30,379 nucleotides of DNA, from positions 1 to 30,379 of the IMG/VR virus record IMGVR_UViG_2896595138_000001. One strand, given 5' to 3'. The notes below the pieces were generated by a model, which saw nothing but the letters and a program-made list of their open reading frames with translations, did not search any database and was not told the origin of the DNA. Shown here piece by piece: positions 5,834-5,944 of this stretch. Source of the stretch: a virus. Taxonomy: Duplodnaviria > Heunggongvirae > Uroviricota > Caudoviricetes. Each line of letters begins with the position of its first letter. Position 1 is the first letter of the stretch. A program made the position numbers and the translations under genes.

Positions 5834-5863
5834 TTGACGACAACGTTAATCCGGGGCTATATT
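5834..5863 (+). promoter_or_regulatory. Candidate sigma-70 promoter (TTGACG-18-TATATT)
   Basis: Near-consensus -35 at 5834-5839 and -10 at 5858-5863; followed by three hairpins and an intrinsic terminator. Confidence 0.35.
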
Positions 5864-5924
5864 CCTCACGCGCCAGCAAAATCTGGCGTCGGGATTGGCG
5901 TCCCGGATATCGAAACGGTGCATA

Positions 5925-5944
5925 ACCGCGCTGGCGGTTTTTTT
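5925..5944 (+). terminator. Rho-independent terminator
   Basis: Stem ACCGC/GCGGT with GCTG loop followed by T7 (5938-5944). Confidence 0.5.

Follow-up and report, generated by a model that had tools for sequence, protein, structure and literature searches.

The window analysed here is a 30,379-nt stretch of viral DNA in which positions 5834–5944 hold a promoter followed by a short unit of three hairpins, and this locus raises the question of which RNA is made from it and what that RNA does. The initial annotation offered two options, either a short phage-encoded sRNA or a late-promoter/terminator (pR′-tR′) module of the kind that normally lies downstream of a Q gene, and it called for a covariance-model search. 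In that search the Rfam isrK model was matched from end to end, and the sRNA option was the correct one, as the unit belongs over its full length to the IsrK family. We consider it very probable that 5834–5944 comprises the promoter and first transcript of an IsrK/C4/antirepressor module, which would be the lambdoid-prophage form of the immI circuit of phage P1. Its first features are as follows.

5834–5863, plus strand: sigma-70 promoter of the IsrK operon, called from a consensus scan, from conservation and from an isrK match starting 7 nt past the −10.
5870–5944, plus strand: IsrK-type sRNA of 75 nt, the leader of the operon, called from Rfam RF01394, the fold and covariation.
5924–5944, plus strand: intrinsic terminator, AACCGC-GCTG-GCGGTT and a T-run, called from the fold and from homologues with a terminator at the same place.

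The promoter reported by the initial annotation is present, with TTGACG at 5834–5839, an 18-nt spacer and TATATT at 5858–5863 (10/12 by consensus scan). The three hairpins and the T7 run that it described are likewise found within the 75-nt unit, both in the sequence and in the predicted fold. Hairpin 1 is formed by GCGCCAG/CUGGCGU (5870–5889) and hairpin 2 by CGGGA/UCCCG (5890–5905); a linker then separates hairpin 2 from the terminator, whose stem AACCGC/GCGGUU spans 5924–5939 and is overlapped by the T7 at 5938–5944. The match to isrK (RF01394) scored 77.8 bits against a cut-off of 50 and covered model positions 1–77 of 77, with an E-value of 2.8e-15 in the 30-kb window. A second family, RF03163 (c4-a1b1), overlaps IsrK at 5857–5909 with 52.9 bits against a gathering threshold of 46.7. 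Taken together, the promoter and the start of the isrK match place the likely transcription start at about 5870. The −35 and −10 elements are kept at the same position in the homologues from E. coli, VT2-Sakai and Gifsy-1, and no LexA box was seen by eye near the promoter. In Salmonella, the 77-nt, Hfq-associated IsrK RNA of Gifsy-1 has been shown experimentally (PMC2330248, PMC4825925), the promoter PisrK drives isrK-orf45-anrP, and a subset of the transcripts passes through the IsrK terminator (PMC4825925).

The genes that such read-through would reach were examined next to those of Gifsy-1.

5971–6055, plus strand: C4 antisense RNA (Rfam RF01695), equivalent to Salmonella STnc1160.
5975–6082, plus strand: putative 35-codon ORF that overlaps C4 and stands where Gifsy-1 has orf45.
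6107–6664, plus strand: antirepressor-like gene of 185 aa with an ORF6N domain, a homologue of AnrP.
6673–6785: second promoter-terminator unit, with its promoter at 6673–6701 and its terminator at 6754–6785.

C4, the small ORF and an AnrP-type antirepressor thus follow IsrK on one strand. The C4 match is full length with 68.7 bits against a cut-off of 45, and in the alignment compensatory changes were seen in 9 of the 17 pairs of its outer stem and in all 5 pairs of its hairpin 1. The antirepressor gene carries the Pfam domain ORF6N (E = 7.5e-20), and its product is 52% identical to STM2616/AnrP of Gifsy-1 (E = 2e-61). The same protein, identical in sequence, occurs in sister genomes with either of the two arrangements described below. 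The ATG of the small ORF is conserved at +106 (+107 in Gifsy-1). Its length varies from 27 to 61 codons across loci, it is fused to ant in some others, and the ORF at 5975–6082 has no Pfam match. Here it ends 24 nt ahead of the ant ATG, whereas its Gifsy-1 counterpart overlaps ant, so translational coupling may differ between the two.

The likeness to Gifsy-1 isrK-orf45(STnc1160)-anrP extends through the whole region. Nucleotides 5830–6110 are 74% identical to Gifsy-1 across 81% of the query (blastn), and both loci have a promoter TTGAC-N18-TATATT, a three-hairpin, terminator-ended RNA of 75–77 nt, C4/STnc1160 with a small ORF, an ORF6N antirepressor, a promoter-terminator unit at the position of isrJ, tRNA and lysis genes. 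The Gifsy-1 order is antQ, isrK, C4, anrP, isrJ, tRNA, holin. The unit at 6673–6785 is likely the positional counterpart of Salmonella IsrJ by this comparison; the Rfam isrJ model gave no match at E ≤ 1 in 6665–6870, and the link to IsrJ is thus one of position and weak alignment only.

We then compared IsrK with the sequence downstream and found two words in it that recur near the start of ant and have complements in C4. Site labels follow the P1 record, in which a1 denotes the loop of hairpin 2 and b1 the linker that follows.

5895–5901, plus strand: site a1, TTGGCGT, within hairpin 2 (loop and 3′ stem), a positional match to P1 a1.
5909–5917, plus strand: site b1, ATCGAAACG, in the linker that joins hairpin 2 to the terminator.
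6014–6020: b′, GTTTCGA, in the hairpin-2 loop of C4, complementary to b1.
6027–6033: a′, ACGCCAA, in an internal loop of C4.
6059–6065, plus strand: site a2, TTGGCGT, a second copy of a1 downstream of C4.
6088–6096, plus strand: site b2, ATCGAAACG, a repeat of b1 just upstream of the ant Shine-Dalgarno sequence.

The a1 word has an exact reverse complement in a′ and an exact second copy in a2, and GATTGGCGTC is common to a1 and a2 in the window. Over about 60 loci a1, a′ and a2 covary through six variants (TTGGCGT, TTGGCGA, TTGGCAT, TTGGCAG, TTGGCGG and TTAGCAC), and ATTGGC is invariant at a2 throughout the alignment. The b word is hypervariable between modules and matched within them, with a median of 7–8 nt for cognate and 5 nt for non-cognate combinations in 65 modules. 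In many of these, b2 takes in the GGA or GGAG of the ribosome-binding site; in the window, the ant Shine-Dalgarno GAGG lies at 6098–6101 and the ATG at 6107. About 65 distinct modules, drawn from many genera, show this covariation of the three-way match of a and b. As in the heteroimmunity of P1 and P7, specificity is set by the variable words.

The strength of the pairing was estimated at the level of the sites, as RNAduplex with the whole of IsrK against 5945–6125 returned an uninformative full-length duplex. The local duplex energy was −30.5 kcal/mol for IsrK with C4 and −22.5 kcal/mol for the ant initiation region with C4. The predicted fold of 5870–6125 pairs the middle of IsrK with the a′/b′ strand of C4, like 'structure A' of PMC4825925. 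The Salmonella study mutated G28 and G31, which pair with C162 and C159; these positions fall in a1 TTGGCG and a′ CGCCAA, both conserved here. The b word is TCGAAAC here and TCACCG in Gifsy-1, and cross-reaction between the two is not expected given this difference. A further candidate pairing, between the hairpin-1 loop GCAAAAUC and the 5′ tail of C4, was rejected as unconserved, the tail reading GAUUU in the window and GAAUU in Gifsy-1 and VT2-Sakai. No partner for this invariant loop was found when the C4 5′ tail was examined.

This arrangement is that of immI in phages P1 and P7, where an antisense RNA is cut from the transcript that it targets, the regulated gene is an antirepressor, and the a′/b′ loops of C4 match a1/b1 upstream and a2/b2 downstream. 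The P1 record (NC_005856) annotates a1, b1, c4, a2 and b2 in the order of the window, with a1 placed in the loop of the corresponding hairpin and b2 directly ahead of the start of icd, and it also annotates an operator, Oc4. The P1 leader itself aligns to the isrK model from end to end, including a terminator-like hairpin, at 35 bits, which is below the cut-off. Several marks of a C4/a1b1 locus of the P1/P7 immI type are found in the window as well, namely the covariance scores, the complementarity at two loops and a b2 word at the ribosome-binding site of the first ORF. The two systems differ in that P1/P7 immI has promoters P51a/b, icd and ant1/2. Its promoter is under the C1 repressor (operator Op51) and ant is expressed by coupling to icd translation; no C1 operator is known at the promoter in the window. 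No icd-like ORF was found between c4 and ant in the window, where the only ORF is the 35-codon one overlapping C4, so that b2 is found at the ribosome-binding site of ant. The antirepressor here is an ORF6N protein, known by its domain and its likeness to AnrP, in place of the Ant1/2 of P1. In the window the module forms a cassette within a lambdoid prophage, while immI of P1 is part of a plasmid prophage. We know of no trans-acting role described for the P1 leader. The immunity system of phage P4 (CI RNA, seqB, seqA, seqC) is similar in that a processed small RNA pairs with upstream and downstream sites on its own transcript, and seqA of P4 has been named a structural homologue of IsrK (PMC4825925). 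CI, however, causes premature termination of transcription of the replication genes rather than masking the ribosome-binding site of an antirepressor.

Family membership, operon layout and the three-way complementarity with its covariation are observations made here on the locus and its relatives, and a mechanism can be proposed from them. The promoter would fire at about 5870, and most transcripts would end at the terminator to give the 75-nt IsrK RNA. A minor fraction would read through into C4, the small ORF and the antirepressor gene. C4, once released from the read-through RNA, would pair through b′ and a′ with a2 and with b2 beside the ant Shine-Dalgarno, so that the antirepressor stays untranslated. 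IsrK may act on this in two ways. In cis, its a1 and b1 sites would lock the long RNA in an inactive fold, while in trans it would serve as a target mimic that competes for C4, either titrating or refolding it, and thereby frees the ant ribosome-binding site. It is likely, then, that C4 masks this ribosome-binding site and that IsrK mimics the site and titrates or refolds C4. For the present locus, we infer the roles of C4 as the repressor of ant and of IsrK as its decoy, as well as the efficiency of termination and the processing of C4.

The Salmonella data bear on this proposal in both directions. There, anrP translation rises more than 100-fold when IsrK is supplied in trans, and its cis and trans roles can be told apart by point mutations (PMC4825925). 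The same study ascribes trans-activation to a structural switch at the orf45 ribosome-binding site rather than to titration of C4, and co-expression of STnc1160 made the toxicity of IsrK stronger, not weaker (PMC4825925), which does not fit a simple model in which C4 represses and IsrK titrates. AnrP in turn raises antQ expression, as shown only in Salmonella (PMC4825925, PMC2330248). As Q and the immunity region are gone here, this arm of the circuit cannot operate in cis.

We considered whether the element might act purely in cis, as a leader or attenuator that sets transcription into C4-ant, with the short RNA as a functionless by-product in this prophage. The element is indeed the 5′ leader of the operon, and some related modules have the a1/b1 hairpins and lack a terminator, which means that not all of them would make the short RNA. 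It has also been suggested that STnc1160 might modulate the IsrK terminator, like CI RNA in phage P4 (PMC4825925). We nevertheless regard this explanation as unlikely. The strong effect of IsrK in trans and the separation of roles by mutation in Salmonella speak against it, a1 and b1 are exact duplicates of a2 and b2 and covary with them as expected of a competitor, and the predicted duplex of IsrK with C4 is stronger than that of C4 with its target.

A pR′-tR′ module, the second option of the initial annotation, is far less probable still. Under this explanation, the promoter would be constitutive and the 75-nt RNA would be a terminated late leader, like lambda 6S RNA or StxS. By the same account, itself very improbable, Q, loading at this promoter, would let RNA polymerase pass the terminator and go on to transcribe the tRNA and lysis genes. 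There is a resemblance: 6S RNA and StxS are short RNAs with a strong promoter and an intrinsic terminator, encoded near Q and upstream of tRNA and lysis genes, and their transcripts are abundant in lysogens, as is IsrK. Lysogens transcribe IsrK under every condition tested, as they do pR′ transcripts (PMC7067206). In Gifsy-1, in sister genomes and in 129 of 5,426 E. coli genomes, a copy of the promoter begins about 35 nt beyond the stop codon that ends a Q-like gene. Downstream lie tRNAs and a lysis cassette.

The promoter region does not, however, track Q. Nearly identical from −35 to +1, it recurs beside two Q families, namely the Q82-like AntQ in Gifsy-1 and a DUF1133 Q-like gene in E. coli, and beside no Q in the nin region of VT2-Sakai, where Q lies 2 kb further downstream, and in the window, where its neighbour is a minus-strand gene. 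Since it is nearly the same next to different Q genes or none, it does not follow Q specificity, which is unexpected for a Q-binding element. P1, which has no Q, carries the homologous immI leader. Furthermore, the transcript enters C4 and the antirepressor gene and not late genes, and the second promoter with its strong terminator at 6673–6785 stands between ant and the late genes. The sequence of this second unit is found right behind DUF1133 in 565 of the 5,426 E. coli genomes, and in most related E. coli prophages it is what comes straight after the Q-like gene. The 6673–6785 unit, and not IsrK, thus holds the true position after Q and before the late genes, and is likely the better late-promoter candidate for prophages of the DUF1133 type.

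The gene directly upstream lies on the opposite strand, as had been noted (5495–5782, minus strand, 95 aa), in the place of the antQ of Gifsy-1. The absence of Q that the initial annotation remarked on was borne out, as tblastn with three Q families (DUF1133, the Q82-like AntQ and Stx-phage Q) found no match in the window. VT2-Sakai also lacks an adjacent Q, and an upstream Q is therefore context and does not define the family. That such a unit is normally found downstream of Q nevertheless holds for the sister genomes, where one copy begins about 35 nt after the Q-like stop; it does not hold here, where the Q-like gene has been deleted.

The deletion can be traced in CP026846.1, in which two IsrK copies lie 3,262 bp apart. 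Counting from the start at 5870, the window matches the flank of copy 1 exactly as far as +39, and it matches copy 2 exactly from −21 on.

5849–5908: crossover zone of the deletion, 60 bp identical in both parental IsrK copies.

Judging from this comparison, the copy in the window is a recombinant in which a crossover between tandem modules within 5849–5908 removed 3.26 kb. The removed segment carried the first C4/ant pair, hok/sok, rem, DUF1367, ybcO and the DUF1133 Q-like gene. In the sister genomes the two modules flank this Q-like gene, which stands upstream of copy 2 and is of the DUF1133 family rather than the Q82-like family of Gifsy-1 AntQ. There is thus no Q gene here because the copy is chimeric, and the module now resides in a Q-less, IS-riddled prophage remnant. 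The two modules of the undeleted sister prophages share the same a word and have different b words, TACGGAG and TCGAAAC. The deletion left a matched IsrK/C4 pair, as would be expected if the matching is under selection.

Last, a chance co-occurrence of promoter-like hexamers and GC-rich hairpins with no function would agree with 5 promoter-like sites by consensus scan in 3 kb against 3.2 expected, no enrichment over shuffles, and with the weak fold energy of the 75-nt RNA alone (z = −1.79; 9 of 200 shuffles fold as well), but it has a negligible probability and is already refuted, on sequence grounds, by the full-length covariance-model match, by homologues in more than 1,500 E. coli genomes and 250 phage records, and by extensive compensatory covariation. 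As neither the promoter scan nor the fold energy did better than chance, significance was drawn from homology and covariation, and the promoter call was rested on conservation and the Salmonella data. Hairpin 1 of the genuine modules comes in 40 different stem variants, in which 98% of positions pair; among chance hits to that search pattern the figure is 46%. These chance hits made up about half of the 120 loci from a pattern scan of genome contigs, fell in unrelated phyla and were kept as an internal negative control. In a 15-sequence alignment hairpin 1 is 100% paired with compensatory changes in 5 of 7 pairs, while hairpin 2 is always paired and varies on one side only, from G-C to G-U. 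MAFFT misaligned the terminator (29% of helix 3 cells paired), and each sequence was instead folded separately and scored for a hairpin and T-run. Every homologue that was folded has a terminator hairpin of differing sequence followed by a T-run, and a hairpin with at least five T is present in 55 of 71 distinct leaders.

The logic of this family goes back to phage P1, where it has been known since about 1990. The element itself is a copy of a known prophage sRNA, a curated family found again, whose mechanism has been studied in Salmonella (PMC4825925). What the analysis adds is that a promoter and a short terminated RNA near lambdoid lysis genes need not be a pR′-tR′ module, and that a 3.26-kb deletion between tandem IsrK modules explains the odd Q-less context. 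Loss of the Q-like gene indicates that this prophage cannot carry out late transcription by itself. The analysis also ties IsrK explicitly to the a1/b1 leader of P1. The comparison of 65 modules indicates that IsrK probably mimics the target of C4 at the antirepressor ribosome-binding site, and this view complements the published structural-switch model. It is conceivable, though rather doubtful, that the a and b words of IsrK form a specificity code across prophages and that the IsrK of this remnant, dead and lacking both Q and repressor, could in trans decoy the C4 of other prophages in which these words are the same. If true, it would switch on the antirepressors of other resident prophages and influence their induction.

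The window was scanned in full against Rfam at gathering thresholds, and three relevant matches were returned: isrK, c4-a1b1 and C4. The isrK model (RF01394) matched 5870-5944 over its full length with 77.8 bits (cut-off 50, E = 2.8e-15). This covariance-model search thus bears out the initial annotation's suggestion that 5834-5944 encodes a short phage sRNA. The c4-a1b1 match (RF03163; 5857-5909, 52.9 bits, cut-off 46.7) overlaps that of isrK, and the C4 antisense RNA (RF01695) was found at 5971-6055 (68.7 bits, cut-off 45). The next gene, ant (6107-6664), encodes an ORF6N domain (Pfam, E = 7.5e-20), and its product is 52% identical to AnrP (STM2616) of Gifsy-1 (E = 2e-61). 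Gifsy-1 DNA aligns with 5830-6110 at 74% identity. The gene order of the window is isrK, C4, ant, a promoter-terminator unit, four tRNAs, holin, lysozyme and Rz. The element at 5834-5944 belongs to the IsrK family and, more broadly, to the P1-type c4 immI system. It is already known and widespread, with matches in 1,581 of 5,426 E. coli genomes and in 250 phage records, a large share of which are Stx phages.

The earlier description of a promoter followed by three hairpins and a run of T matches the sequence, a consensus promoter scan and the fold of the RNA from about 5870, as follows.

5834-5839, plus strand: promoter -35, TTGACG (sequence and consensus scan)
5858-5863, plus strand: promoter -10, TATATT, 18 nt from the -35
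5870-5889, plus strand: hairpin 1, GCGCCAG/CUGGCGU (fold)
5890-5905, plus strand: hairpin 2, CGGGA/UCCCG (fold)
5924-5939, plus strand: terminator hairpin, AACCGC/GCGGUU (fold), then seven T at 5938-5944

Promoter scan and fold energy do not separate 5834-5944 from chance: there were 5 promoter-like sites in 3 kb versus 3.2 in shuffled sequences, and the z-score of the fold energy was -1.79 for the IsrK RNA at 5870-5944. Since both generic measures are near chance, the case for this element rests on homology and covariation.

Structural conservation was examined in an alignment of 15 homologues from E. coli, VT2-Sakai, Gifsy-1, Klebsiella, Raoultella, Symbiopectobacterium, Aeromonas, Marinobacterium and others. 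All cells of hairpin 1 (100%) were paired, and 5 of its 7 pairs showed compensatory changes; hairpin 2 paired in every homologue with one-sided variation only (G-C to G-U). Compensatory changes were also present at 9 of the 17 pairs of the C4 outer stem and at 5 of 5 in the first C4 hairpin. As the terminator was misaligned by MAFFT, the homologues were folded one by one, and all showed a GC-rich hairpin of differing sequence followed by a T-run. In a wider set of modules from a pattern scan with one genome per species, hairpin-1 stems occurred in 40 variants, with 98% of positions paired in genuine modules versus 46% in chance pattern matches. Of 71 distinct leaders, 55 had a further hairpin and at least five T after hairpin 2; a minority, such as Enterobacter loci, have both hairpins without the terminator. 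The hairpin-1 loop (5877-5882) is GCAAAAUC without variation in all homologues examined, and its P1 counterpart is GCAAAUUC. No conserved complementary partner of GCAAAAUC was found in C4 or downstream; Hfq binding, processing or pausing are possible sources of the constraint.

The sites of P1 were mapped onto the window, where two short words, a and b, recur in IsrK (a1, b1), as complements in the C4 loops (a', b') and upstream of ant (a2, b2). The ribosome-binding site and start codon of ant were read from the sequence.

5895-5901, plus strand: a1, TTGGCGT
5909-5917, plus strand: b1, ATCGAAACG
6014-6020, plus strand: C4 b', GTTTCGA
6027-6033, plus strand: C4 a', ACGCCAA
6059-6065, plus strand: a2, TTGGCGT
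6088-6096, plus strand: b2, ATCGAAACG
6098-6101, plus strand: Shine-Dalgarno of ant, GAGG
6107, plus strand: ATG start of ant

The a word occurs in six variants (TTGGCGT, TTGGCGA, TTGGCAT, TTGGCAG, TTGGCGG and TTAGCAC); at about 60 loci, each is followed 105-170 nt downstream by its exact complement and then, about 32 nt later, by a second exact copy. The b word is hypervariable: TCGAAAC in the window, TACGGAG in E. coli locus L002, TCACCG in Gifsy-1 and TAAGAAGG in Pseudomonas loci. It is nevertheless matched inside each module. Across 65 distinct modules, the longest perfect complement of the C4 loop, both to the leader and to the sequence ahead of the start codon, had a median of 7-8 nt for cognate versus 5 nt for non-cognate pairs. 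The b2 word frequently extends into the ribosome-binding site, taking in its GGA or GGAG. Both three-way matches, a1/a'/a2 and b1/b'/b2, covary. The module of E. coli RMDEC465 (coordinates 7457-7465, 7594-7601, 7657-7662 and 7761-7844) has the variant a word TTAGCAC, TGCTAA in C4 and a second TTAGCA downstream, with an sRNA-Xcc1 match (RF02221) inserted between C4 and the antirepressor gene.

The GenBank record of P1 is annotated in the order promoters P51a/b, a1, b1, c4 RNA, a2, b2, icd and ant. In P1, the second hairpin of the leader holds a1 in its loop, and b1 comes shortly after; the P1 leader aligns to the isrK model end to end, terminator-like hairpin included, with 35 bits, below the cut-off. 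Unlike P1, the window lacks icd and has an antirepressor of another type. The predicted IsrK-C4 duplex (-30.5 kcal/mol) is stronger than that of C4 with the ant initiation region (-22.5 kcal/mol). In the predicted fold of a 256-nt read-through RNA, the middle of IsrK pairs with the C4 a'/b' strand, resembling the inactive 'structure A' of the Salmonella study (PMC4825925). Because of the P1 site order, the covariation of the words, the duplex energies and this fold, we infer that C4 is a repressor and IsrK a decoy. C4 would mask the ribosome-binding site of the antirepressor, and IsrK would mimic that site, holding C4 on the long RNA in cis and titrating it in trans.

IsrK was discovered in Salmonella as a 77-nt RNA (PMC2330248). 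Two forms exist there, a short RNA that stops at the terminator and a read-through isrK-orf45-anrP mRNA; the first turns on translation of the second in trans, and AnrP then boosts expression of the antiterminator AntQ (PMC4825925). The Gifsy-1 order is antQ, isrK, C4, anrP, isrJ, tRNA and holin; the window differs in its b word, in small-ORF geometry and in having no Q. Family assignment, layout and covariation are established for the window itself, and the RNA species and trans-activation are shown in Salmonella only. STnc1160, a stable RNA cut from the read-through transcript (PMC4825925), has the location of the C4 match. Its co-expression made IsrK toxicity greater (PMC4825925), which fits poorly with C4 as repressor and IsrK as decoy.

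The prophage appears to be a remnant that lacks an immunity region. An IS3-family element (orfA 2771-3073, orfB 3109-3927) and an adjoining IS4-like transposase remnant (3939-4475) occupy 2771-4475, the position of the repressor, replication and early nin genes in related prophages. It seems unlikely, if conceivable, that the IsrK of this prophage targets C4 modules in other resident prophages with the same two words. The chromosomal sRNA pair RyeA/SdsR (463-607; Rfam 179 and 118 bits) marks the bacterial flank, and the RalA antitoxin RNA of a Rac-type ralR/ralA system (2130-2308, 207 bits) lies just inside the prophage; in sister loci, yebY, copD and an integrase fragment adjoin this region. 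The four tandem tRNAs (6872-7182), between antirepressor and holin, are CAT, Arg-TCT, Thr-TGT and Gly-TCC, the first being Met according to ARAGORN and tRNA-Ile in the annotation of RefSeq relatives. At 7294-7388, between the tRNAs and the holin gene, several weak sub-threshold Rfam matches to microRNA-precursor models point to a long hairpin. The lysis cassette (8075-8972) may be frameshifted: the lysozyme ORF has 187 aa in the window versus 165 aa in several sister loci, and calls for the following Rz-like gene differ among loci (95 versus 154 aa). An Rfam match to CssrB, a chromosome-encoded Shigella sRNA (29105-29287, 151.6 bits), together with the many IS elements, suggests Shigella or a close E. 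coli as host.

The initial annotation had recognised no Q gene, and tblastn with three Q families across the window likewise gave no match. In public assemblies, a protein identical to Ant of the window is encoded in two different arrangements. Sister genomes (CP026846.1, CP026836.1 and others), reached through a minus-strand 95-aa protein of the window, have two IsrK-C4-ORF6N modules in direct orientation, 3,262 bp apart. Copy 1 adjoins the minus-strand gene and copy 2 begins directly after DUF1133; between them lie the first C4, a 226-aa ORF6N gene, hok/sok, rem, DUF1367, ybcO and the DUF1133 gene, which also matches Pfam Phage_antitermQ (26.4 bits, cut-off 26). Up to +39, the window and copy 1 with its flank are identical; from -21 onward, the window is identical to copy 2. 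It follows that a crossover within the 60-bp stretch common to both copies (5849-5908, window coordinates) deleted everything between them, the Q-like gene included. Since the crossover was just upstream of b1, the recombinant IsrK keeps a b word that matches its own C4. The 95-aa gene itself (5495-5782, minus strand) is rare, its DNA being present in 1 of 5,426 complete E. coli genomes, and has a sub-threshold Pfam match to CCDC90-like/DUF1640 (29.8 bits, cut-off 33.5).

The other reading in the initial annotation, that 5834-5944 is a pR'-tR' late promoter-terminator module, was rejected as very improbable. The promoter does not track the type of Q: the sequence from -35 to +1 is nearly unchanged whether its neighbour is a Q82-like Q (Gifsy-1), a DUF1133 Q (E. 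coli L002) or no Q, and likewise in the nin region of VT2-Sakai, where it is flanked by a ninE-like gene and roi and lies 2 kb ahead of Q. Furthermore, the leader is homologous to that of P1, which has no Q, and the IsrK transcript runs into C4 and ant. The unit at 6673-6785 is the better pR'-tR' candidate.

Within 6673-6785: second promoter-like site, TTGCAA-17-TTCAAT, between ant and the tRNAs
6708-6734: 5' hairpin of the unit
6754-6785: strong terminator of the unit

The fold of this unit has an energy of -32.2 kcal/mol (z = -5.6). In E. coli RMDEC465 an identical sequence comes directly after the DUF1133 Q-like gene, and the unit also resembles the region behind DUF1133 in another prophage as well as Gifsy-1 isrJ, whose position it shares. 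By implication, RNAs of the IsrJ type may, like StxS, be leader transcripts of a late promoter. Of the 5,426 complete E. coli genomes, 565 have the 3' end of DUF1133, this unit and tRNA-Ile in one uninterrupted stretch, and in 129 IsrK directly follows DUF1133. IsrK-C4-ant therefore behaves like an optional cassette placed between Q and its likely late promoter.
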